A stretch of DNA of 64,000 nt from an uncultured Actinomycetes bacterium (GTDB lineage Bacteria > Actinomycetota > Thermoleophilia > Gaiellales > JAICJC01). A model generated the notes under the pieces. The model searched no databases and was not told the origin of the DNA. It saw nothing but the letters and a program-made list of their open reading frames with translations. This document shows, piece by piece, positions 3,575 to 64,000 of this stretch; within the stretch, counting starts at the first letter, position 1, and the number at the start of each line of letters is the position of its first letter. The translations under genes were made by a program, and so were the position numbers. The stretch is from NCBI GenBank assembly GCA_963720885.1, contig CAVRGW010000005.1, positions 871,704 to 935,703 on the forward strand. Direction: 5' to 3'.

Positions 3575-5529
3575 CAGGCGGGGCGCAATGACCGGGCGAT
3601 CGCGATCATGTCGGGGTTCGACAGGTCATCGCGAAGCGTGTTCTGCACCCAGTAGGCCACGCCTCCCTGGACGATGGCGATCATGTGGATGTGCGAGCCG
3701 TTGAAGTAGAACTTGTACGAGCGGCCGTCCAGCTTGCGGATCAGGTCGGGGCTGGCCAGGATCGGCGCGTCGACGAAACGAGTCTCCTCGATGCCCCAGT
3801 AGGCACCGGCAAGGTTCGGCATGGCGAACACCGCGTACATCGAGTTCCAGCCCTTGCCCGCGGCAGCGATGTTGTACGTGCGGATCGGCATCTCGGGCGT
3901 GAAGTCGTCGAACTGCGAGCCCGTCTGCTGCACCGTCGGGTAGAGCACCGGGAAGTGCAGGCTGCGCTTCGCGGTCTCGAAGTAGCTCAGATACGCCTGT
4001 GAGTCGCGGACGATGTCGGCCGGCAGCCCGGTCGGCGTCGACTGCTTGGGCGGCGCGACCGCCGTCTTGCCGGTGAACGGCTTGCCGACGATGACAACCA
4101 GATCCGTGCCGTAAGTGAAGGCGGCCGGCACCGGCGCAGTCTGCGCATTGCCCATGATCTTGGCGACGTCGGTCGCGGCCTTCTGCTGGCCGGGATGGAA
4201 GTACACCCAGTTCTGCGAGTAGTCGAACGTCGGCGCCGGCACCTGGCTGACGTCGACCTGGTATCCGAAGCGATCGAGCGCCGCGCCGGCCTCGGCCGCC
4301 GAGCCGGTGCGGCCGTTGCCGTTGACGGACGTCAGCGAGACGCCGGCCGGTTCGACCGCCGGCCTGAACTTCGGGGTGTTCGCCGGCTTCTTGCCGGTCG
4401 GCACGGTCGGCTTGGCCAGCGACTGCGGGTGCGTGAACTGGTAGACGGCGGTGTGCATGTCCTCTGGCGTGGTCGTCACCACCGAGGCGTCGCCGATCAT
4501 CCCGGCCCCCGCCGTCAGCCGCGACGACACCACGTGCCCGCGGCTCTCGTACGCCAGCGTCGCGTAGGAGATCATCGTCTGCACGCTCGGCGGCCCGTTG
4601 CGGCCGGTCACCTGGACGCTGTCGGCGATCGTCTCGGCGATGTCCTTGTAGGTGCCGATCTCGGTCAGGTCGATGCCGTGCAGCTTCTCCGACGCCCGCG
4701 CCTGGAACGCCTGCAGGAACGTCTGCTGTCGGGCGTTGCGGTAGAAGTCGGAGTCGGTGTGGCGGTAGCGCGCGAAGCCCAGCGCGTCGGTGCCATGCAG
4801 CAGCTGGTAGCCGGGCTTGACGTCGATCTGGGCGTACTGCTCCGTGCCCGGCGTGTTCGTGTGCTGGTAGTACTGGTCGACCGGCACGTAGACGCCGCCG
4901 AACGCGTTGACCAGCCGGGTGAAGCCACTGAAGTCGACCACCATCAGGTAGTTGACGTCGACGCCGGTGACCGACTCGACCGTCTTCAGGGCGAGCTTCA
5001 CGCCGCCCGTTTCGTACGCCGCGTTGATCTTGTTCTCGCCGTAGCCGGGGATGTCGACCCACAGGTCGCGGGGCAGCGACAGCAGCGAGATGTAGTGCGT
5101 CTGCGGGTCGATCCGCACCAGCATCAGCGTGTCCGAGCGGGAGTCGTTGACGCCGTCGCCCTGCCGCTTGTCGGAGCCGATCACCAGCCCGACGGCGGCC
5201 TGATTGGCCGTCGGGATCTGGACGAGATCGCCCTGCGCGTCCTGCGTGCTCTTGTCCAGGTGGCTGATCTGGCCGACCAGACCGTGCGCCCAGTAGCCGA
5301 CGACGCCGCCGATCGCCAGCAGCAGGATCAGCAGGCTGCCGAACGTCCACAGCGCCACCCGCTTCCAGCGCACGCGTCGCTTACCTCCGCCGCGGCGGGC
5401 GTCGTACACGACCATCTCGGGTCGGGATCTGGGGGGCTTAGGCGGCGTTTCGGTCGGCACGCGGTCCTTGGTCCTCAGGAATGCGCCCGACTCACGGGCG
5501 CGTCGCAGTATAGAACGGGTCTTCGTCAC
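3574..5529 (-). CDS. LytR-CpsA-Psr (LCP) family cell-wall glycopolymer ligase with LytR_C-like region and an extra C-terminal domain
   Basis: N-terminal TM segment, then GSDKR..SRSDTLMLVRIDP..ISLLSLPRDLWVDIPGYG.NKINAAY. The stop shares one nucleotide with the ugd ATG (TGATG). Confidence 0.85.
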   Translation of the reverse strand: MTKTRSILRRARESGAFLRTKDRVPTETPPKPPRSRPEMVVYDARRGGGKRRVRWKRVALWTFGSLLILLLAIGGVVGYWAHGLVGQISHLDKSTQDAQGDLVQIPTANQAAVGLVIGSDKRQGDGVNDSRSDTLMLVRIDPQTHYISLLSLPRDLWVDIPGYGENKINAAYETGGVKLALKTVESVTGVDVNYLMVVDFSGFTRLVNAFGGVYVPVDQYYQHTNTPGTEQYAQIDVKPGYQLLHGTDALGFARYRHTDSDFYRNARQQTFLQAFQARASEKLHGIDLTEIGTYKDIAETIADSVQVTGRNGPPSVQTMISYATLAYESRGHVVSSRLTAGAGMIGDASVVTTTPEDMHTAVYQFTHPQSLAKPTVPTGKKPANTPKFRPAVEPAGVSLTSVNGNGRTGSAAEAGAALDRFGYQVDVSQVPAPTFDYSQNWVYFHPGQQKAATDVAKIMGNAQTAPVPAAFTYGTDLVVIVGKPFTGKTAVAPPKQSTPTGLPADIVRDSQAYLSYFETAKRSLHFPVLYPTVQQTGSQFDDFTPEMPIRTYNIAAAGKGWNSMYAVFAMPNLAGAYWGIEETRFVDAPILASPDLIRKLDGRSYKFYFNGSHIHMIAIVQGGVAYWVQNTLRDDLSNPDMIAIARSLRPA

Positions 5530-5544
5530 GGATTGCCGGTCTCC

Positions 5545-6648
5545 TCACCGGTTCTCAGCGGTCGCCAATCGTTGGGCGAAGGCCACGAGCGCGCTCCGGT
5601 AGCGGGCCAGCGACTCGACCTCGACGTACTCCTCCGGCCCGTGATGCCCGCCTCCGGCCGGGCCGAACTCGATGCTGGGGATGCCGCGGTCGAGGAAGAA
5701 CACCGCATCGGAGGCGCCGTCGCGGCCCACCGCGGGCGCCTCGCCGCCGCCCGCGTCGCGGACGGCTTCGCGCAGCACGCGGACATGTTCCTCGCCCGGA
5801 TCGAGCGCCGCCGGCGGCAGCTCGTAGAGCGGCGTGATGGTCATCGCGCCGAGGCCCCGCACCTGGCGCAGAACCTCGTCCGGGTCCTGGTTGGGCAGGT
5901 AGCGGATGTCGACGTCCATCCGGCAGTGGTCGGGCACTTTGTTGACCGCGTCGCCGCCCGAGATGCGGCCGATGTTGATCGACGGCCGGGCGAACAGCTC
6001 GGACTGCGCGGTCGAGAACGGCAGTTCGAGGATCCGCTGGTAGAGATCGAGGGCTCGGAGGATCGCGTTCTCGCCCAGCCACGGCGTCGAGCCGTGCGCG
6101 CCGCGGCCCTCGACGTCGATCCGCAGCACCAGCACGCCCTTCGACTGCACGCCGATCTCGAGGTCGGTCGGCTCGCCGCAGATGACGAAGTCGCCGACGT
6201 GCCCCTCCTCGGCCAGGAAGGCGGACGCCTTGCCGCCGGCCGGCTCGTCCTCCCGCTCCTCGTCGGGGACGATCAGCAACTTGACCTTGACCCCGGGGAT
6301 CGTGTCGCGGGCGTCGGCCAGGTCGGCGAGGGCGGCGAGCATGCCGGCCAGACCGCCCTTCATGTCGTAGGCGCCGCGGCCGTAGACCCGCCCGTTGACG
6401 CGCCAGGGCGAGAACTGCTCGGCGCGGCCGGGAACGACGTCGACGTGTGCATTCCAGACAACGGTGCGCGGTCCGTCTCCCACGGCGGCGACCAGCGACG
6501 GCAGCCCGCGGTCGTACTGGACATGGGAGATGGAGCGCGCCTCCAGCCAGCCCTTGAGGAACGCGAACGCCTCATGGATGCCCTCGTCGCGGGAGGTGTC
6601 GTACGAGATCAGGCGCTCGAGGAGGGCGACTTCGTCGGCGGCGGCCAC
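5545..6648 (-). CDS. M20 family metallopeptidase (ArgE/DapE/ACY1-like)
   Basis: WNAHVDVVP..GRGAYDMKGG..VPDEE..GEPT..GRGAHGS motifs. GTG start at 6648. Confidence 0.8.
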   Translation of the reverse strand: MAAADEVALLERLISYDTSRDEGIHEAFAFLKGWLEARSISHVQYDRGLPSLVAAVGDGPRTVVWNAHVDVVPGRAEQFSPWRVNGRVYGRGAYDMKGGLAGMLAALADLADARDTIPGVKVKLLIVPDEEREDEPAGGKASAFLAEEGHVGDFVICGEPTDLEIGVQSKGVLVLRIDVEGRGAHGSTPWLGENAILRALDLYQRILELPFSTAQSELFARPSINIGRISGGDAVNKVPDHCRMDVDIRYLPNQDPDEVLRQVRGLGAMTITPLYELPPAALDPGEEHVRVLREAVRDAGGGEAPAVGRDGASDAVFFLDRGIPSIEFGPAGGGHHGPEEYVEVESLARYRSALVAFAQRLATAENR

Positions 6649-6675: not shown

Positions 6676-7863
6676 GTGTCCACGCCGTCTCTGTGGCAGA
6701 TCCAGGCTCCGTCGCGGGGCCATGACCGGCTCCGGGGCGACGTCTCGGCCGACGTCTGCATCGTCGGCGCCGGTGTCACCGGGGGTGCGTGCGCGTGGCG
6801 GCTGCTCGAGCACGGACTGCGGCCGGTGGTGCTCGACGCGCGCGAGGCGGCGGCGTCGGCGAGCGGCCGCAACGGCGGGTTCGCGGTCGGCTCGAGCGAC
6901 GCAGCGGCCGACCGGGCGCTCGCCGAGATGGCGGCGATGGCGGCCGAGCTGGGCGTGGCCGACGCTGTGCAGAGGCGGGGAAGCCTATGGCTGGGCGGTG
7001 AGAACGACGCGCACGAGCTGCAGGACGCGGTGAACGCCGCGCACGCCGACGGGCTGCCGGTCGAGGACGCGCTCGACCGCGTGCCCGCGCCGATGCGCGG
7101 CAGGTTCGCCACGGCGGCGTTCTTTCCCGGCGACGGCGAGCTGGAGCCGGCGCGCTGGGTGCGGGCGCTGGTCGATGGGGCGGCGGCCCGCGGCGCGGCG
7201 GTGCACGAGCACTCGCCGGCGACGGCGGTGGAGTCGCGCGCCGGCGGGTGGTCCGTGCGGACGCCCGGCGGGGCGGTGTCCTGCCAAGCGGTGGTCGTGG
7301 CCTGCGATGGGCTGATCCCGCGGGTGGCGTCGTGGCTCGACGGCTACATCTACCCGGTGCGCGGGCAGATGCTGGCGACGGAGCCGCTGCCGCCCGAGCG
7401 GCGGGTGCTGTGGTGCCCGACCCATTCGGGGTTCGGGTTCTGGTACTACCGGCCGACGGGCGACGGGCGGATCGCGCTGGGCGGCGGGAGGCTGGCCGAC
7501 CTCGAGGCGGAGTACACGGATGTCGAGGAGACGACGCCCGCGGTGCAGGCGGCGCTCGAGCGCTTCCTGGCGGACGACCTCGGCCTCGCCGGCGTCGCCG
7601 TCACGCACCGCTGGGCGGGCGTGATGGGCTTCTCGGCCGACCTCGTGCCGCTGGCCGGCGAGGTGCCCGGCCGGCCGGGGCTGTACGTCAGCGGCGGCTA
7701 CAGTGGCGTCGGCAACGTCAACGGCTGGCGCTGCGGGCGGCTCGTGGCCGACCTGATCGCCACCGGCGCCCACACCGACGCTGCGCGCTTCGACCCGGCG
7801 CGCTTCGGCGACGGGCCGCCGCCCGAGCCGCTCGAGAAGGCCGCCAGCCGCGAACTGCTCTGA
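6676..7863 (+). CDS. FAD-dependent oxidoreductase (DAO/glycine-oxidase-like family)
   Basis: This is the last 395 codons of ORF 4195..7863. GTG 6676 is preceded by AGGAG (6666-6670). Dinucleotide-binding motif VCIVGAGVTGGACAWRL; C-terminal GGYSGVG. Confidence 0.8.
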   Translation: MSTPSLWQIQAPSRGHDRLRGDVSADVCIVGAGVTGGACAWRLLEHGLRPVVLDAREAAASASGRNGGFAVGSSDAAADRALAEMAAMAAELGVADAVQRRGSLWLGGENDAHELQDAVNAAHADGLPVEDALDRVPAPMRGRFATAAFFPGDGELEPARWVRALVDGAAARGAAVHEHSPATAVESRAGGWSVRTPGGAVSCQAVVVACDGLIPRVASWLDGYIYPVRGQMLATEPLPPERRVLWCPTHSGFGFWYYRPTGDGRIALGGGRLADLEAEYTDVEETTPAVQAALERFLADDLGLAGVAVTHRWAGVMGFSADLVPLAGEVPGRPGLYVSGGYSGVGNVNGWRCGRLVADLIATGAHTDAARFDPARFGDGPPPEPLEKAASRELL

Positions 7864-7867
7864 GGGT

Positions 7868-7927
7868 GCGACAGGGGGTCAGGAACCGCGTCGCAGCACT
7901 GCGACGCGGTTCCTGACCCCCTGTCGC
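7868..7927. repeat. REP/REPIN-like perfect palindrome (class I), 29-bp arms
   Basis: GCGACAGGGGGTCAGGAACCGCGTCGCAG-ca-CTGCGACGCGGTTCCTGACCCCCTGTCGC. It begins 5 nt after the upstream stop. Confidence 0.9.
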
Positions 7928-7960: not shown

Positions 7961-8686
7961 ATGCCTGGACCGTACCGTCACGCGATGCCACGTCAGCCGC
8001 GGATCCAGTTCGAAGACGCTGCGTACCACGTGATGCAGCGAGGAGTCGACAAGCAGTTGATCGTCCGCGACGACCAGGACCGGCGGACGCTGATCGGGCT
8101 ACTCGCGCGGACCGTGATCGAACACCGCTGGAGCCTGACAGCGTATTGCCTGATGGACAACCATCTCCACGCGCTGATCCGAACGCGGAAGCCGAACCTT
8201 GCCGTTGGGATGAAGCTCTTTCAGCAGACATACGTGCGCCGGTTCAACGACCGGCACCGCCGCATCGGCCCGTTGTTCCAGGGCAGATACAAGGCCAAGC
8301 TCCTCACCCGAAACGAGCACCACATCGCCACCCTCCGGTACATCCCGCTGAACCCGGTCGCACACGGCGCGTGTGGCCATCCGGCGAGCTGGCGCTGGTC
8401 AAGCTACCGAGCGACGATCACGCCAGCGATCGCGCCCGACTTCTTGGATGCCGATGCGGTCGCAGAACTGTTCGACGAGGGTGTAGAGGGGTACCGGCGG
8501 TTCGTCGAACACGGCATCCCTGACGCCCTCGAGCGAGCGAGACCCCGCCTGCCTCTCGAGGTGTTACTGACCCGCACCGATGGCATCCACGCCGCCCGCA
8601 AGCACGGCTACTCGCTTCGGCAGATCGGCGAAGCCGTTGGGCTCCACCACTCGGCCATCGCCCGCATCCTTCGGCGCGGTACATAG
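7961..8686 (+). CDS. IS200-like Y1 (HUH) transposase, REP-associated tyrosine transposase (RAYT)-like, with C-terminal HTH region
   Basis: PRIQFEDAAYHVMQRG, HUH motif DNHLHALI, GPLFQGRYKAK, catalytic-Tyr region LRYIPLNPV, C-terminal YSLRQIGEAVGLHHSAIARIL. The start is more likely ATG 7985 (MPRQPRI). Visibly lower GC3 than neighbours. Confidence 0.8.
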   Translation: MPGPYRHAMPRQPRIQFEDAAYHVMQRGVDKQLIVRDDQDRRTLIGLLARTVIEHRWSLTAYCLMDNHLHALIRTRKPNLAVGMKLFQQTYVRRFNDRHRRIGPLFQGRYKAKLLTRNEHHIATLRYIPLNPVAHGACGHPASWRWSSYRATITPAIAPDFLDADAVAELFDEGVEGYRRFVEHGIPDALERARPRLPLEVLLTRTDGIHAARKHGYSLRQIGEAVGLHHSAIARILRRGT

Positions 8687-8687
8687 C

Positions 8688-8747
8688 GCGACAGGGGGTC
8701 AGGAACCCTGGCGCATCGGTGCGCCAGGGTTCCTGACCCCCTGTCGC
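8688..8747. repeat. REP/REPIN-like perfect palindrome (class I), 28-bp arms
   Basis: GCGACAGGGGGTCAGGAACCCTGGCGCA-tcgg-TGCGCCAGGGTTCCTGACCCCCTGTCGC. It lies between convergent genes. Confidence 0.9.
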
Positions 8748-27894: not shown

Positions 27895-28038
27895 ATGTAC
27901 CACCTGATCCTCCAGGCAACGAAGCCGCCGCGTCCACACGAGCGAGAGACCGAGCGCCAGCACTTCGAGCGGATGGCGCGCGAGGCGCGCAAGTCGCAGC
28001 GGCGCATCCTTTCCCGCCGGCGCAAGCCGGCTGCGTGA
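27895..28038 (+). CDS. hypothetical very basic 47-aa protein
   Basis: ATG 27895 lies 8 nt after AGGGAG (27881-27886). MYHLILQATKPPRPHERETERQHFERMAREARKSQRRILSRRRKPAA. GC3 is high. Too short for the ORF track. Confidence 0.4.
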   Translation: MYHLILQATKPPRPHERETERQHFERMAREARKSQRRILSRRRKPAA

Positions 28039-28105
28039 AACAACGGGGTCAGACCCCTTTGTTTCACCGCCACGCAACAACGGGGTCAGACCCCTTTGTT
28101 GCGTG
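28035..28105. repeat. two tandem REP-like hairpins (class II core GGGGTCAGACCCC)
   Basis: GTGAAACAAcGGGGtcagaCCCCtTTGTTTCAC (28035-28067) and CACGCAACAAcGGGGtcagaCCCCtTTGTTGCGTG (28071-28105). They share an identical 25-nt core, and the outer stems differ but stay complementary. They lie between convergent genes. Confidence 0.8.
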
Positions 28106-28114
28106 GCGTCCGGG

Positions 28115-28745
28115 TCACCTGGTGCCGTAGAGCCGGTCGCCCGCGTCGCCCAGCCCGGGCATGATGAATCCGCGCTCGTTGATGGCGCGGTCGAGGGCCG
28201 CGGTGTAGACCTCGGCCTCGGGCACCTCCGCTCCGAACCGGGCAACACCTTCCGGCGCGGCGACGATCGAGAGCAGCCGGATCCGGCGAGCGCCGGCGTC
28301 AGCGCAGAGCCGCCCCGCGGCGGAGGCGGTGCCGCCCGTCGCCAGCATCGGGTCGAGCAGCAACACGTCGCGCTGCCCGAGGTCGCCGGGCAGCTTGCGG
28401 TAGTACTCGACAGGCTCCAGCGTCTGCTCGTCCCGGTAGAGGCCGACGAATCCCACGCGGGCAACGGGGATCAGGTCGAGCACCGCGTCCAGCATCCCCA
28501 CCCCCGCCCGCATCACGGCGACCACGCCCAGCTTCTTGCCCGATACCTGCGCGCCGTGTCGTGCGCTCCAGCGGTGTCTCCACCTCGACCGGCTCGAGCT
28601 CCAGGTCGCGCGTCGCCTCGTAGCAGAGGAACGCGGCGATCTCGCCCATCAGCAGCCGGAAGTCGCGGGTGGTCGTCGTCCGGTCGCGCAACAGGGTGAG
28701 CTTGTGCTGGACGAGCGGGTGGTCGACCAGGTGAAGCTCAGGCAC
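28115..28745 (-). pseudogene. upp: uracil phosphoribosyltransferase, frameshifted as sequenced (1-nt insertion within 28551-28566)
   Basis: [29 protein letters not shown] | ..[32 protein letters not shown] lie in two frames. 631 nt minus 1 gives 210 codons. Confidence 0.9.
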
Positions 28746-30037
28746 CGGGCACGGCGGGGTAGCCGTTGACCAGGTGGGCGTAGAGCGGCCGGCCGGCCAG
28801 CAGCTCGCCGGTGCGGCGGCGAAGCGCCGGGAGGTCTGCCGCCGGGTCGAGCGTCTCCAGGATGATCGACCCGACCTCGCGCATGTCGTCCTCGTCGAAG
28901 CCGCGCATCGTCGCGGCCGGCGTGCCGACGCGCACGCCGGAGGCGATCGTCGGCGGCCGCTCGTCGAACGGCACCGTGTTGCGGTTGACGGTGATCGCCA
29001 CCTCGTGCAGGCGCTCCTCGGCATCCTTGCCCGACCACTGCGTGCTCCGCAGGTCCATCTGCAGCAGATGGATGTCGGTGCCGCCGGTGACCAGGTCGAT
29101 GCCGCCGTCCATCAGCGTGCGGGCCAGCGCCGCGGCGTTGTCCACGATCTGCTGCTGATAGGCGCGGAAGGCGTCGCTCGCGGCCAGCTTGAAGCACACG
29201 GCCTTGGCCGCGACCACGTGGCAGAGCGGGCCGCCCTGGAGGCCCGGGAACACCGCCTTGTCGATCGCCGTCGCGTGATCGGCCCGGCAGAGCACCATCC
29301 CCGACCGGGGGCCGGCGAGCGTCTTGTGCGTGGTCGAGGTGACGACGTCGGCATGCTCGACCGGATTCGGGTGAAGCCCGGCGGCGACCAGCCCGGCGAA
29401 GTGCGCCATATCGACCATCAGCAACGCGCCGACCTCGTCGGCGATCGCGCGGAACTGGGCGGCGTCGATCACCCGCGGGTACGCCGACGCACCCGCGACG
29501 ATCAGCTTGGGCCGCACCTCATGCGCCAGCCTCCGCACCTCGTCGAAGTCGATCCGCTGGTCCTCGCGGCGCACGCCGTACATGTGGACGGCGTAGTTGC
29601 GGCCGGAGAAGTTGACCTTCAGCCCGTGCGTCAGGTGCCCGCCGTGGTCGAGGCGCAGGCCGAGCACCGGGTCGCCGTGCTCGAGCAGGGCGAAGTAGGC
29701 GGCCTGGTTGGCCGGGCGCGCCGGCGTGGGGCTGGACGTTGGCGTGATCGGCGCCGAACAGCTCCTTCGCGCGGTCGATCGCGAGCTGCTCGACCTCGTC
29801 CACCCACTCGCAGCCGCCGTAGTAGCGGCGGCCCGGGTAGCCCTCGGCGTACTTGTTGGTGAGCACCGAGCCGACCGCCTGCAGCACGGCGGGCCAGGTG
29901 AAGTTCTCGGAGGCGATCAGCTCCAGCTGGTCGCGTTGGCGGCCCAGCTCCTTGTCGACCAGGCCCGCGACCGCCGGGTCGATTTCGGCCAGGCCGGCTG
30001 CCTGGTAGGACTGCCACGTCTGCTCGGCTACGGCCAC
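28738..30037 (-). pseudogene. glyA: serine hydroxymethyltransferase, frameshifted as sequenced (1-nt insertion near G-run 29714-29716)
   Basis: ..[34 protein letters not shown] | ..[39 protein letters not shown] lie in two frames. 1300 nt minus 1 gives 433 codons. GTG 30037 is behind GAGGAG. Confidence 0.9.
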
Positions 30038-36785: not shown

Positions 36786-36815
36786 AGGTGGAGAGCCTAG
36801 CGCCTTGGTGCGACT

Positions 36816-36859
36816 GGGGTCAGGAACCTCTGGCATTGGTGCCAGAGGTTCCTGACCCC
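36816..36859. repeat. REP-like palindrome (class I, shortened copy)
   Basis: GGGGTCAGGAACCTCTGGCA-ttgg-TGCCAGAGGTTCCTGACCCC. It is preceded by gcgact (compare GCGACA in the RAYT-flanking copies). Confidence 0.85.
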
Positions 36860-36871
36860 GATGGCACATCC

Positions 36872-39873: not shown

Positions 39874-39933
39874 GTGCCGGGCACGGTGCCGGGCGCGGTG
39901 CCGGGCACGGTGCCGGGCACAGTGCCAGGGCCA
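39874..39933. repeat. 12-bp tandem repeat, 5 units (GTGCCGGGCACG consensus)
   Basis: gtgccgggcacg gtgccgggcgcg gtgccgggcacg gtgccgggcaca gtgccagggcca, in the gap between the cupin gene and the MCM small subunit. Confidence 0.9.
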
Positions 39934-60078: not shown

Positions 60079-60939
60079 GTGGCGGTTCCCGATCGCGTGA
60101 CCGTCGTCGAAGTCGGGCCGCGCGACGGCCTGCAGAACGAGGACGCGCTGGTGCCGACGGCGGCCAAGGTGCTGCTGATCGAGGAGCTGGCGCGATGCGG
60201 GCTGCCGGTCGTCGAGGCGACGTCCTTCGTCAGCCCGCAGGCAGTGCCACAGCTCGCGGATGCCGAGGACGTCATGCGGGCGCTCGACCGGCGCGAGGGC
60301 GTCCGCTATCCCGTGCTCGTGCCGAACATGCGCGGCATGCAGCGCGCCGAGGCGGCCGGGGCGGAGGCGGTCGCGGTGTTCACGGCGGCGTCGGAGGCAT
60401 TCACGTCGGCGAACTTGAACATGACGATCGGCGACTCGCTGGATGCGGCCGAGGAGGTGCTCGACCGCGCGGCCGAGCTCGGCTGGTGGCGTCGTGGGTA
60501 CGTGTCGACGGCCTTCGGTTGTCCCTACCAGGGGCCGGTCGACGAGGAGGACGTGGTGCGAGTGGCCGATGCGCTGATCGACCTGGGATGCGAGGAGGTC
60601 TCGATCGGCGACACGATCGGCATTGCCAATCCCGACGACATCGATCGGGTGGTCGGTGCGCTCCTCGAGCGGATCCCCGCCGAGCGCCTGGCGCTGCACC
60701 TGCACGACACCGGCGGCCGGGCGCTGGAGAACGTCGAGGCCGGCCTCGAGCTGGGCATCGCCGTCTTCGACGGCTCGGCCGGCGGCGCGGGCGGCTGCCC
60801 CTTCGCCCCTGGCGCTCCCGGCAACCTCGCAACCGAACAGTTGGTCGCGCTGCTCGACCGCCACGGCATCGCCCACGGCGTCGATCTCGACCGCCTCACC
60901 GCCACCGGCGCCGGGCTGCGCTCGCTGCTCGGGGTCTGA
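60079..60939 (+). CDS. hydroxymethylglutaryl-CoA lyase
   Basis: 286 aa: VVEVGPRDGLQNE..; HLHDTGG.AL.N; GGAGGCPFAPGA.GN.ATE. The stop codon lies inside the class II repeat. Confidence 0.9.
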   Translation: MAVPDRVTVVEVGPRDGLQNEDALVPTAAKVLLIEELARCGLPVVEATSFVSPQAVPQLADAEDVMRALDRREGVRYPVLVPNMRGMQRAEAAGAEAVAVFTAASEAFTSANLNMTIGDSLDAAEEVLDRAAELGWWRRGYVSTAFGCPYQGPVDEEDVVRVADALIDLGCEEVSIGDTIGIANPDDIDRVVGALLERIPAERLALHLHDTGGRALENVEAGLELGIAVFDGSAGGAGGCPFAPGAPGNLATEQLVALLDRHGIAHGVDLDRLTATGAGLRSLLGV

Positions 60940-60967
60940 CCCCGCTCTGACCCCGCTCTGACCCTGG
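60932..60967. repeat. class II repeat array, left flank of RAYT-2 (3 units of TCTGACCCCGC)
   Basis: GGG-TCTGACCCCGC-TCTGACCCCGC-TCTGACCCtgg. Positions 60932-60956 are the exact reverse complement of 61665-61689. Confidence 0.85.
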
Positions 60968-61041
60968 CCGTCACGATGTCGCGACGAATTCGCGACTTAA
61001 CGCTCGGTGAATCGCCACTCGAGGCGGCGTACCTTCGTCGA

Positions 61042-61653
61042 ATGTCACGCGATCCGAGAATCCAAGCCGCGGAGGCGTTCTTTCATGTCTCCACCCATTC
61101 CACCGACGACCAGCTGCTCTACCCGGAGGACGAGGACTGCCTCGAGTTCTGCGACGTCTTCGCCAAGGTGGTCAAGCGGTTCGAGTGGCGGTGCCACGCC
61201 TACGTCCTGATGGGCACGCACAACCACCTGCTGCTCGAGACCGAACACGCCAATCTGAGCCGAGGCATGCAGTACCTGAACGGTGTCTACGCGCAGCGGT
61301 TCAACCGCCGGCACCGACGGGCGGGACCCACGCAGCGAGCGCGTTACTGGTCAGCACCGGTCGAGACAGACGCGCACGTCTTCGAGGTCTCGAGGTACTT
61401 CCCGATGAACCCCGTGCGCGGTGGCATGTGCTCGCATCCGGCTGACTGGCCATGGTCGAGCTATCGAGCGATGACCGGCACCGCAGAGCCGCCGCCGTTC
61501 TTGACGACGTCCTGGCTCCTGCAGATGTTCGACGACGATCTCGACCGCGCCCGCGTGCTCTACCGACGGTTCGTGGACGAGAGTCTGGATGATCTGGAGG
61601 CGCACAGGAAGGCCATGCGTGCGTTCGCGAAGTCGGCACACGTCGTCACGTAG
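61042..61653 (+). CDS. divergent IS200-like Y1 transposase / RAYT-like protein (paralogue of 7961..8686)
   Basis: ORF 60976..61653. The start is preferred at ATG 61042 (MSRDPRIQAAEAFFHV, which aligns to MPRQPRIQFEDAAYHV). YVLMGTHNHLLLET aligns with CLMDNHLHALIRT; SRYFPMNPV aligns with LRYIPLNPV. Visibly lower GC than the flanks. Confidence 0.7.
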   Translation: MSRDPRIQAAEAFFHVSTHSTDDQLLYPEDEDCLEFCDVFAKVVKRFEWRCHAYVLMGTHNHLLLETEHANLSRGMQYLNGVYAQRFNRRHRRAGPTQRARYWSAPVETDAHVFEVSRYFPMNPVRGGMCSHPADWPWSSYRAMTGTAEPPPFLTTSWLLQMFDDDLDRARVLYRRFVDESLDDLEAHRKAMRAFAKSAHVVT

Positions 61654-61664
61654 TTTTGACTCAA

Positions 61665-61694
61665 GCGGGGTCAGAGCGGGGTCAGACCCGGGTC
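61665..61694. repeat. class II repeat array, right flank of RAYT-2 (2 units of GCGGGGTCAGA)
   Basis: GCGGGGTCAGA-GCGGGGTCAGA-CCCgggtc, in inverted orientation relative to 60932-60956. Confidence 0.85.
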
Positions 61695-61709
61695 GGGCGC
61701 GCGCTGCGT

Positions 61710-62180
61710 CTAGCCGTCGCCACCGTCGACGACGACCCGCTCCATGCGGACATCGTCGATCGGCTTGTCCCGGGCGTCCGTCGGCTGCGCCTCGATCGCA
61801 TCGATCACGTCCATGCCGTCGAGCACACGGCCGAACGCGGTGTGCTTGCCGTCCAGCCAGGGCGTCGCCTCGGCGGTGACGATGAAGAACTGGCTGCCGT
61901 TCGTGTTCGGGCCGGCGTTCGCCATCGCCAGCGTGCCGCGGACGATCGGGTGCTCGTTGAACTCGTCGTCGAACGTGTAGCCCGGGCCGCCGGTGCCGGT
62001 GCCGTTCGGGCAGCCGCCCTGGATCATGAAGTTGCCGATCACCCGGTGGAACACCAGACCGTCGTAGAAGCCCTCGGACGCGAGCTTGCGGAAGCTGGCG
62101 ACCGTCTCCGGCGCCTCCTCGTCGAACAGCTCGAGCTGGATGGTGCCGTGGTTCGTCTCGATGGTGGCGCTGGAAGGCAT
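61710..62180 (-). CDS. ppiB: peptidyl-prolyl cis-trans isomerase (cyclophilin type)
   Basis: Start set to ATG 62180: [19 protein letters not shown]...GFYDGL.FHRVI.NFMIQGG.P.G.G.GGPGY.F.DE. Confidence 0.9.
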
Positions 62181-62316: not shown

Positions 62317-64000
62317 ATGTCGACCAACAGGACAGCAGGCGCGCCGCCAGGACGAGCGGCGCTTGTCCGCAGCGCACTGGCCGCTGCTGCCGCTGCGTTC
62401 GCCGCCGCCGCCCTGCTCGCTACCTCACCCGCGCCGGCCGCCGCCGGCCCCGTCGGCTCGCTGACCGTCAAGCTGACGGCGCATCCGCCGGAGTTCACGA
62501 ATGACCACACCGCGACGTTCAACTGGGCGACGGTCGGCATCCTCGGTGAGACGCGCTGCAAGATCGACTCCGGCCCGTACACGTACTGCCAGGGGCGCCC
62601 GGCGCGCTACTTCCTGCCCGACGGCCGCCACACCTTCACCGTGCGCGTCCGCAACGGCTACAAGGTCGTCGCCAAGGCGAGCTGGACGTGGACGGTCGAC
62701 ACCGCGGCGCCCACCCCGCCCAACGTCACCGGTGGCTCGCTGTCCTGGCGCACCGGCACCGGCGTCACCGTGACCGGGGGCGGCGGCACCGACGCCTCGA
62801 GCGGCGTCAGCGGATACCAGCATCGGGCGTCGACCAACGGCGGCCTCTGGTCGACCCCTGCCGCCGGGCCCTCCGTGCTGGTCAAGTCCGAGGGACAGAC
62901 GCTGGTCGAGTTCCGCACCAAGGATCGCGCCGGCAACGTCTCCGCCTGGTCGCCCAGCGCCGCCACCCCCGGCAACACCGTTCGCATCGACCGCACCGCG
63001 CCCACCCTGCCGACGCTGTCCGGCGGCTCACTGACGTGGCAGGGCGTCCCCTCGATCACGATCTCCGGCTCAGGCTCGGGCGACAGCCGCTCGGGCGTCG
63101 ACGCCTACCAGTACCGCGAGTCGCACAACAACGGGGGGACCTGGTCGGCGCCGATCGCCGGGCCGAGCGACGTGGTCGCCACCGAGGGGCAGACCCTGGT
63201 GCAGTTCCGCGTGCTCGACATGGCCGGCAACGCGACCGCCTGGGTGCCCTCCAGCGCGACCCCGGCGAGCACCGCGCGGATCGACCGCTCCGGACCGACC
63301 GACCCGACGCTTGCCGGCGGCTCGCTGTCCTGGCGCAGCGTCGCCCAGACCACGGTCACCGCCGGCGGCTCGGTGGACATCGGCTTCGGGCTCGACCACT
63401 ACGAGCGGCGGACGTCCTCCGACGGCGGCTCGACCTGGTCGCCGCCGGTCAACGGGAGCTCGATCACGGTCGCCGCCGAGGGCCAGACGCTGGTCCAGTT
63501 CCGCGCCGTCGACACCGCCGGCAACGCATCCGCCTGGACGCCCGCCAGCTCGACCCCGGCGAGCACGATCCGCATCGACCGCACCGCGCCGGTGGATCCC
63601 ACGGTCGGCATCACACCGCCGGGCTGGCACAACGCCGCCGCCATCACCGTATTCGCGGGCGGCTCGACGGACGTGCTGGGCGGCGTCGACCACTACCAGT
63701 TCCGCTCGTCCGCCGACAACGGCGTCACCTGGACGACGCCGGTCAACGGCGACACGGGCGTGGTCACCGGCGAGGGCCAGACGGTCGTCCAGTTCCGCGC
63801 CGTCGACGGTGCCGGCAACCTCTCGGCGTGGGCGCCGGCCACCGCCAGCCCTTCGAACATCGTCCGCATCGACCGCACCGCGCCGACCCTGCCGACCGTG
63901 ACCGGCGGCCAGGCCGGCTGGCAGAGCGCCGCATCGGTCGCGGTCAGCGCGTCCGGCGGCAGCGACGGGCAGGCCGGGATCGACCACTACGAGAGCCGCA
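62317..64000 (+). CDS. secreted tandem-repeat (98-aa unit) surface protein; 3' end lies beyond the window
   Basis: My translation from ATG 62317 is open to the window end. It has a signal-like N-terminus [44 protein letters not shown]. After that there are at least 5 units of the form ..TAPT.P...GGS..W......T..GGS.D..SG...Y.YR.S...G.TWS.P..G.....[19 protein letters not shown]...TP..T.RIDR. It is absent from the ORF track because there is no stop. Confidence 0.75.

Follow-up and report, generated by a model that had tools for sequence, protein, structure and literature searches.

A probable TIRYT-type RAYT gene between inverted arrays of an 11-nt repeat at the HMG-CoA lyase-ppiB junction of a Gaiellales-type actinobacterium

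Amongst the proteins resembling the REP-associated tyrosine transposases (RAYTs), the TIRYTs are set apart by being flanked by terminal inverted repeats (TIRs) instead of the GTAG repetitive extragenic palindromes (REPs), and a subset of these TIRs has the motif GGGGWSAS in common, with dispersed dimers or clusters reported as well (PMC3733652). Domesticated RAYTs are found in single copy at a fixed locus, are inherited vertically and evolve under purifying selection, and dispersed repeat copies far from a single-copy RAYT are typical of REP/REPIN systems (PMC5581495). Here we analyze a RAYT-like gene, referred to as RAYT2 (61042..61653, forward strand, 203 aa), in a 64-kb stretch of contig CAVRGW010000005.1 (the window; all positions count from its first letter), where the gene lies between two oppositely oriented arrays of an 11-nt repeat. 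The locus is very likely a REPtron or TIRtron, in other words a chromosomal, single-locus and vertically inherited HUH/Y1 single-stranded DNA nuclease-transposase of the RAYT class (TIRYT subclass) together with its cognate repeats. The gene is conserved and probably active.

In order to place the protein within the RAYT world, twelve sequences rebuilt from Additional file 5 of PMC3733652 were compared by BLASTP. RAYT2 matches the TIRYTs sml4509, sml1152 and pfs148A with E-values of 1e-28 to 1e-31 at 32-35% identity, as against 1e-4 to 1e-7 at 20-22% identity for classical RAYTs. Taken together, RAYT2 and its window paralogue RAYT1 match the TIRYTs at 1e-28 to 1e-34 (32-40% identity, with most or all of the protein aligned) and the classical RAYTs, including E. 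coli YafM, at 1e-3 to 1e-7. Because the best matches are TIRYTs and the GGGGTCAG contained in every repeat unit fits the TIR motif GGGGWSAS, we assign the element on sequence grounds to the TIRYTs/TIRtrons, which makes it part of a RAYT subclass rather than a new kind of system. As in the TIRYTs (PMC3733652), the protein carries an M-x-R-x-P-R N-terminus and the signatures AYxLMxNHxHLL, RYxxxNPVRAG and WSSY, and its gene lies between inverted repeats with GGGGWSAS that are also dispersed as dimers or clusters. It differs from them in its host, a Gaiellales-type actinobacterium, Actinobacteria being unmentioned in the text of PMC3733652, and in the tandem 11-nt units of its inverted repeats, as opposed to the one long TIR that at least part of that paper describes. 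Unlike in the published TIRYT examples, moreover, the orientation of the units to the gene is reversed, relative to RAYT1 and to a homologue in a Gaiellaceae metagenome-assembled genome (MAG; L209).

With the classical RAYT/REPtron (E. coli YafM, that is TnpA-REP, 4ER8; PMC2817692) RAYT2 shares the fold and the catalytic architecture, 4ER8 being its best structural match, as well as the inverted flanking repeats and the single copy at a fixed chromosomal locus. It departs from the classical RAYTs by its identity of only about 20%, by its score below the NCBIfam equivalog cutoff, by repeats that lack the GTAG tag and are not imperfect palindromes of 20-40 nt, and by a longer protein with a C-terminal helical extension. 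The REPIN-RAYT systems of Pseudomonas (Bertels and Rainey, 2011; PMC5581495) resemble it in their vertically inherited, single-copy and strongly constrained transposase, in the association with dispersed inverted repeat doublets, and in having more than one paralogue per genome, each with a repeat of its own, the pairs here being RAYT1 with GGGGGTCAGGAACC hairpins and RAYT2 with GCGGGGTCAGA arrays. The TnpA proteins of IS200/IS605 elements (IS608, ISDra2) share the HUH/Y1 fold and make up the second tier of structural matches; unlike those elements, which lack terminal inverted repeats, the present one has them, and it shows neither a tnpB gene nor multicopy behaviour.

The original prediction of a RAYT-like Y1 transposase, made from the letters alone, is borne out by profile and structure comparisons. 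Pfam Y1_Tnp (PF01797) matches with 27.1 bits (cutoff 23), and a profile of 120 homologues searched against the PDB returned 4ER8, TnpA-REP, as its sole significant match (E 4e-5), extending over the whole catalytic domain. The AlphaFold model computed on the 120-sequence alignment is compact (pLDDT 94.1, pTM 0.87), its C-terminus forming one long helix, and Foldseek places it closest to 4ER8 (E 5e-9, TM-score 0.77 on the target), followed by the transposases of IS200, IS608 and ISDra2 at about E 1e-5. We are thus confident that the modelled protein has a Y1/HUH transposase fold. The family is large, with 24,894 cluster representatives (50% identity) matching at E ≤ 1e-3. No NCBIfam match to transpos_IS200 was found, and the defence models of PADLOC matched neither of the window paralogues.

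All of the motifs that had been pointed out are present, namely THNHLLL, FHVSTHS and RYFPMNP in RAYT2 and NHLHALI and YHVMQRG in the paralogue at 7985..8686, and they had raised the question of whether RAYT2 is still catalytic. The HUH motif corresponds to H60-N61-H62 and the catalytic tyrosine to Y119 within RYFPMNP. In the alignment to 4ER8 the former falls on HMH and the latter on residue 115 of the chain, Y115, which we take to be the catalytic tyrosine of TnpA-REP. The columns of H60, H62 and Y119 are nearly invariant in the family alignment and that of N123 is invariant. Peculiar to the small clade of RAYT2 are changes at usually conserved positions (YHV to FHV, RGN to HST, GHxFQGRFK to GPTQRARYW), though some of them, such as Q to R, are found in other family members too. 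As judged from the alignment, none of the predicted catalytic residues H60, H62 and Y119 has been altered by the motif substitutions.

The locus reads, in order, HMG-CoA lyase, left repeat array, a 74-nt leader, RAYT2, right repeat array and ppiB. The lyase gene (60079..60939, forward strand) is recognized by Pfam HMGL-like with E 3e-43, and the cyclophilin gene ppiB (61710..62180, reverse strand; Pro_isomerase, E 5e-52), which is convergent with it, forms the right border of the insertion site. The left array (60931-60967, forward strand) consists of GGGG, two copies of TCTGACCCCGC and a degenerate TCTGACCCTGG, and is kept in L001-L005, L205 and L206-208, loci of related sequence considered below. 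Its counterpart on the right (61664..61700, forward strand) consists of two copies of GCGGGGTCAGA plus CCC (61665-61689), followed by the degenerate inverted unit GGGTCGGGCGC. Tandem Repeats Finder gives both arrays a period of 11, with 2.7 and 2.8 copies; each unit is made up of GGGGTCAGA and a 2-nt linker, and the tandem units to the left of the gene are oriented opposite to those on its right. The third, degenerate unit that had been predicted to reach 60967 is found as the end of the left array, and the arrays do form a perfect inverted repeat of 11-nt units, as had been claimed, but over 26 nt (60932-60957/61664-61689) and not over 25. Six occurrences of GGGGTCAGA in the window compare with 0.48 expected, and none of 100 shuffles reached six.

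Arrays at orthologous loci differ in unit number and orientation; at the right end, two direct units in the window stand against a perfect 28-nt palindrome at the equivalent site of L005. This variation is consistent with ongoing turnover, although replication slippage would give the same pattern. Three separate assemblies (L206-208) terminate within the left array, a break of the kind that multicopy repeats usually cause.

The gene body itself is AT-richer than its surroundings, as had been noted at the outset: its GC content is 64% (lyase 72%, ppiB 68%, whole 64-kb window 70.6%), and at third codon positions it is 0.84 as against 0.91-0.96. The mechanically called open reading frame (ORF) spans 60976..61653 (225 aa). 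Homologues, the window paralogue included, align only from M-x-R-x-P-R-I at ATG 61042, and the ortholog in L005 has a stop codon in the upstream extension, so the true start is most likely ATG 61042, giving 203 aa. The start at 60976 was rejected, as the family aligns from M23 and the extension in L005 contains an extra base, a frameshift and a stop. What remains upstream is a leader conserved in the ortholog alignment (60968..61041, forward strand), with a hairpin GTCGCGACGAATTCGCGAC at 60978-60996 in the computed fold and a TANNNT hexamer resembling a -10 element, TACCTT at 61030-61035, six nt before the ATG (TACATT in L003). From the position of this hexamer the gene may be transcribed as a leaderless mRNA. 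A scan of 60800-61800 for sigma-70 promoters and intrinsic terminators gave no match, and no Rfam family was matched in the whole 64-kb window.

To assess how the gene has been inherited, we searched 5.8 billion proteins for its nearest relatives. Three clusters stand at 89-97% identity, and all others at or below 51%. Orthologues occupy the same lyase-RAYT-(ppiB) position in four related Gaiellales-type contigs (L001, L002, L003 and L005), which represent all three of these clusters and a GTDB MAG locus. Between the window and L005, the ratio of nonsynonymous to synonymous substitution rates (dN/dS) is 0.064 for RAYT2 (dS 0.31) and 0.068 for the lyase (dS 0.26); the values are 0.111 (dS 0.53) and 0.082 (dS 0.35) for L002, and 0.129 (dS 0.45) and 0.056 (dS 0.16) for L003. 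Over all pairs, including L002 versus L003, RAYT2 shows dN/dS of 0.06-0.13 at dS of 0.31-0.60, the dS being of the same order as that of the lyase or up to about threefold higher. This constraint in combination with the synteny indicates that RAYT2 is functional, resides at a single locus and is inherited together with its neighbours under purifying selection. The gene is accordingly not a recent insertion but has co-diverged with the genes beside it. On plasmids the family is rare (23/72,556 records). Whether this copy had been domesticated was asked in the original prediction, and its behaviour is indeed that of domesticated RAYTs (single locus, vertical inheritance, low dN/dS) and differs from that of an active insertion sequence.

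Two outgroups show the junction without the element. In L008, whose lyase is 72% identical and of the same 286-aa length, the lyase ends in EVLAR* and is separated by a 27-nt spacer from the ppiB stop; in L204 (lyase 77% identical) it ends in QLLGVSSRRPR* and overlaps ppiB by 23 nt. Both the gene and the repeats are absent from the lyase-ppiB junction of these two. Since the outgroups have the convergent gene pair without either component, we place the insertion in the common ancestor of the loci with lyases of at least 87% identity, where the element went into a minimal spacer between the convergent genes. The abutting genes of L008 and L204 thus agree with the earlier proposal of an insertion at the 3' end of the lyase gene. 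No target-site duplication was found at the lyase-ppiB locus.

Two close relatives, the Gaiellales MAG L004 (lyase 98% identical) and L205, also lack the ORF and the right array. The left array is still present in both, and after it some 55 nt of leader sequence are fused, at an identical junction, to what immediately precedes the stop of ppiB, so that L004 is ruled out as an empty site; we read both loci as a secondary deletion of about 61025-61697 in window coordinates. The original prediction had held that relatives with the same lyase end and the same repeats but without the transposase gene would dissociate the repeats from it. L004 and L205 are literally such relatives, but as secondary deletions they do not uncouple the two. 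In L001 the RAYT ortholog (5001-5611) has lost one base relative to L005 and the window, which splits it into ORFs of 153 and 50 aa and could reflect a genuine loss of function or a sequencing artefact.

The right flank is variable in its own right. L002 has a GGDEF-domain gene there (1120-1491), L005 (5614-5870) and the equivalent part of L001 have a stop-containing fragment of about 65 aa from a response-regulator receiver domain, and the window has neither the GGDEF gene nor the receiver fragment. These differences look like serial deletions beside the right array; short microhomologies of high GC content mark their junctions.

We then analyzed the occurrence of the repeat in JGI metagenomes, which were scanned for the unit doublet GGGGTCAGASCSGGGTCWGA. 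At least 120 contigs carry it, with a GC content of 0.53-0.76 (mostly 0.61-0.73). Among the matches listed, up to 10 units follow one another at a spacing of exactly 11 nt, and the linkers are CC (240), GC (49), CT (21) and CG (18). Convergent inverted units lie within 120 nt of one another in 93 of the 120 listed loci and would, as read from their sequence, form long hairpins like REPINs. RAYT-like genes stand beside the units in seven of the 120 listed loci. L116 reproduces the architecture of the window exactly, five copies of TCTGACCCTGC preceding the gene and five of GGGGTCAGAGC following it, with a protein that is 33% identical. In L209, where the homologue (46% identical) lies between mreB and maf, a perfect 25-nt inverted repeat has the core GGGGTCAGACCCC, and L202, L110, L171 and L142 have a RAYT-like gene with adjoining units as well. 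That the repeats belong with the gene, as had been proposed, is thus supported by distant homologues in other organisms (30-46% identity), which are likewise flanked by GGGGTCAGA units; no fewer than six independent and strongly divergent cases have the units in inverted orientation on both sides of a RAYT-like gene. No conserved target motif was detected outside 225 array boundaries, only G-richness immediately before outward-facing TCTGACCCC units. A blastn comparison of the window with the 120 listed array loci gave no matches, so that no presence/absence polymorphism of a dispersed copy was available from them, and a literature search for the string GGGGTCAGA returned unrelated primers and sequences only.

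Within the window, the 13-mer CGGGGTCAGACCC, which is also the terminal unit of both arrays, is found at two more sites. They form two adjacent intergenic hairpins (28036..28110, forward strand; fold -35.9 kcal/mol, z -7.9), each containing the 13-mer. Allowing one mismatch, the 13-mer is counted five times in the window, compared to 0.30 expected, and it does not occur in 78 lyase loci from other taxa, which by their lengths add up to an estimated 600 kb or so. Like the arrays, the hairpins sit between convergent genes.

By analogy with E. coli TnpA-REP and IS608 TnpA, the RAYT2 protein would bind single-stranded repeat DNA folded via GGGGTC/GACCCC pairing, and would cut and rejoin it through a phosphotyrosine intermediate at Y119, with the metal held by H60 and H62. 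As an outcome, unit arrays and hairpin doublets would be created, expanded, contracted and dispersed genome-wide without the gene itself being copied. Enzymatic activity, DNA recognition and repeat mobilization are what we infer for RAYT2 from these relatives. In the proposed history the element would have entered the tiny convergent lyase-ppiB spacer in the ancestor of a Gaiellales sublineage, where an array of three units closing all reading frames can abut the 3' end of a gene harmlessly; the lyase today ends on the first unit.

Three other explanations were weighed against this one. An autonomous insertion sequence (IS), either IS200/IS605-like or TIR-bearing, that recently transposed into the lyase-ppiB spacer and is still mobile as a unit would account for a gene of transposase fold between perfect 26-nt terminal inverted repeats, for a GC content below that of the neighbours and for the absence from the outgroups. 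We nevertheless consider it quite unlikely, since the gene occupies the same locus in four diverged contigs with a dS of 0.3-0.5 that tracks the lyase, is single-copy in the window and in the loci examined, comes with neither a target-site duplication nor tnpB, matches no NCBIfam transpos_IS200 model and belongs to a family seldom found on plasmids; the array composition that varies among orthologues also fits repeat turnover and not the fixed ends of an IS. The deletions in L004 and L205, the one-base deletion in L001, the lack of the C-terminal helix-turn-helix (HTH) of many homologues and the changed motifs could instead describe a decaying relic, that is, a former transposase gene without function on its way to loss. 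This is very improbable in view of a dN/dS that stays at 0.06-0.13 over dS values up to 0.5 and is as low as that of the housekeeping lyase, of the intact H60, H62 and Y119, and of the confident, compact structure model; moreover, the frameshift in L001 may be a sequencing indel, as the contig name suggests a long-read assembly and the close relative L005 is intact.

Alternatively, the arrays might be regulatory or structural repeats of the host, such as terminators, insulators or protein-binding sites about one helical turn apart, that spread independently and lie next to the gene only incidentally. The 113 of 120 listed metagenome arrays with no RAYT-like gene in the retrieved DNA speak for such a role, as do the left array that L004 retains without the gene and the position of arrays and hairpins between convergent genes. 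Against it stand the at least six independent, highly diverged cases with inverted units on both sides of RAYT-like genes, the earlier report of the same motif on the TIRs of the TIRYT class (PMC3733652) and the dispersal of copies far from a single-copy RAYT, which is the REP/REPIN pattern (PMC5581495), so that we regard incidental adjacency as quite unlikely too.

The REPtron/TIRtron interpretation has to accommodate several observations that weigh against it. The gene is dispensable: L004 and L205 have lost it by deletion, and L001 may carry a frameshift in it. Its best and sole NCBIfam match, NF047646 REP_Tyr_transpos, scores 63.3 bits, under the 80-bit equivalog cutoff, and the protein has no C-terminal HTH, unlike the paralogue at 7985-8686 and many relatives of about 285 aa. 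As single strands the window arrays fold weakly (z -1.5 to -2), unlike classical palindromic REPs, and the 64-kb window contains no further 11-nt tandem array but two palindromic relatives only. Finally, the dispersed metagenome units mostly have GGGGTCAGA facing inward (225 boundaries versus 36), the opposite of the arrangement around the window gene and in L116.

A consequence of the array position is that the repeat supplies a stop codon. The lyase frame ends ctc ggg gtc TGA, and this TGA (60937-60939) lies in the first unit, which on one strand reads TC-TGA-CCCC; close lyase orthologues all end RSLLGV* or RSLLGL* on the repeat TGA. As each unit contains a TGA and 11 is not a multiple of three, three units place the stop in all three frames. 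Among the 42 outward-facing boundaries in the listed metagenome loci, the first unit provides the TGA that closes 10 ORFs of 100 codons or more. Two of the ten were confirmed as real genes on unrelated contigs, both ending on a TCTGACCCCGC array: a major facilitator superfamily (MFS) transporter in L186 (minus strand, unit at 4723 of the reverse strand) and an MtmB-family methyltransferase in L200 (1310), in which one repeat unit makes up the final five codons (GLTPL). Judging from these sequences, stop-bearing units would explain how arrays sit harmlessly on gene 3' ends, and the donation of the stop is a side property, not evidence for recruitment of the repeat by the host.

It had been claimed that both the last codons and the stop of the lyase come from the repeat. 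For the stop this is clearly so, but for the final codons GV the indications point both ways. L204, which has no repeat, nevertheless encodes LLGV and continues for another six residues, which suggests an ancestral origin; G-richness precedes outward-facing TCTGACCCC units generally and the inverted repeat includes GGG, which points to the repeat. The two codons may be ancestral.

As for the wider meaning, we suggest only tentatively, and with more doubt than confidence, that tandem 11-nt GGGGTCAGA-NN arrays are an undescribed and very widespread RAYT/TIRYT repeat architecture of soil bacteria, combining a conserved tag, spacing of about a helical turn and a three-frame stop. If this is true, a recognition tag is conserved across partner proteins of 30-46% identity, analogous to the GTAG of classical REPs, and the all-frame stop codon lets arrays settle on gene 3' ends, as at the HMG-CoA lyase and in L186 and L200. 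The GGGGWSAS tag is retained across very divergent partner proteins. The locus extends RAYT/TIRYT-repeat systems to the Gaiellales, a deep-branching and mostly uncultured order of soil Actinobacteria, a phylum unmentioned in the main text of three key RAYT papers. Sister lineages with the gene (the window, L005) and with a clean deletion (L004, L205) constitute a natural experiment in which repeat decay after transposase loss is testable. For gene calling and assembly in these genomes it matters, moreover, that the 11-nt arrays abound in soil metagenomes, interrupt assemblies and can donate stop codons.

The paralogue RAYT1 (7985-8686, 233 aa, with a C-terminal HTH) is 39% identical to RAYT2 and its only other homologue in the window. 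It is accompanied by hairpins at 7863-7927 and 8688-8747 that have common GCGACAGGGGGTCAGGAACC outer arms and different self-complementary inner stems, and a third, intergenic hairpin of the GCGACAGGGGGTCAGGAACC type lies at 36809-36866. We consider the GCGACAGGGGGTCAGGAACC hairpins a second family of repeats, with RAYT1 as its partner.

The hairpins at 28036-28110 have the core AACAACGGGGTCAGACCCCTTTGTT and outer stems that differ in a compensatory manner. They lie between an Arg/Lys-rich ORF of 47 aa (27895-28038, no Pfam match) and the convergent gene upp. The latter (uracil phosphoribosyltransferase; about 28115-28770, reverse strand) appears split over two frames, with the C-terminal 136 aa in ORF 28115..28525 and the N-terminal part in another frame of ORF 28299..29024, and is either a pseudogene or affected by an indel of the assembly; in the latter case caution would be due with frameshifts of a single base in related contigs too, for example with that in the RAYT ortholog of L001. 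Two further repeats occur elsewhere in the window. At 39874-39931 there is a tandem array of 4.8 copies of the nearly palindromic 12-nt unit GTGCCGGGCACG (91% matches), and 63174-63888 contains 2.4 copies of a repeat with a 294-nt period (74% identity), which probably encodes the repeated domains of a large protein running off the end of the window.

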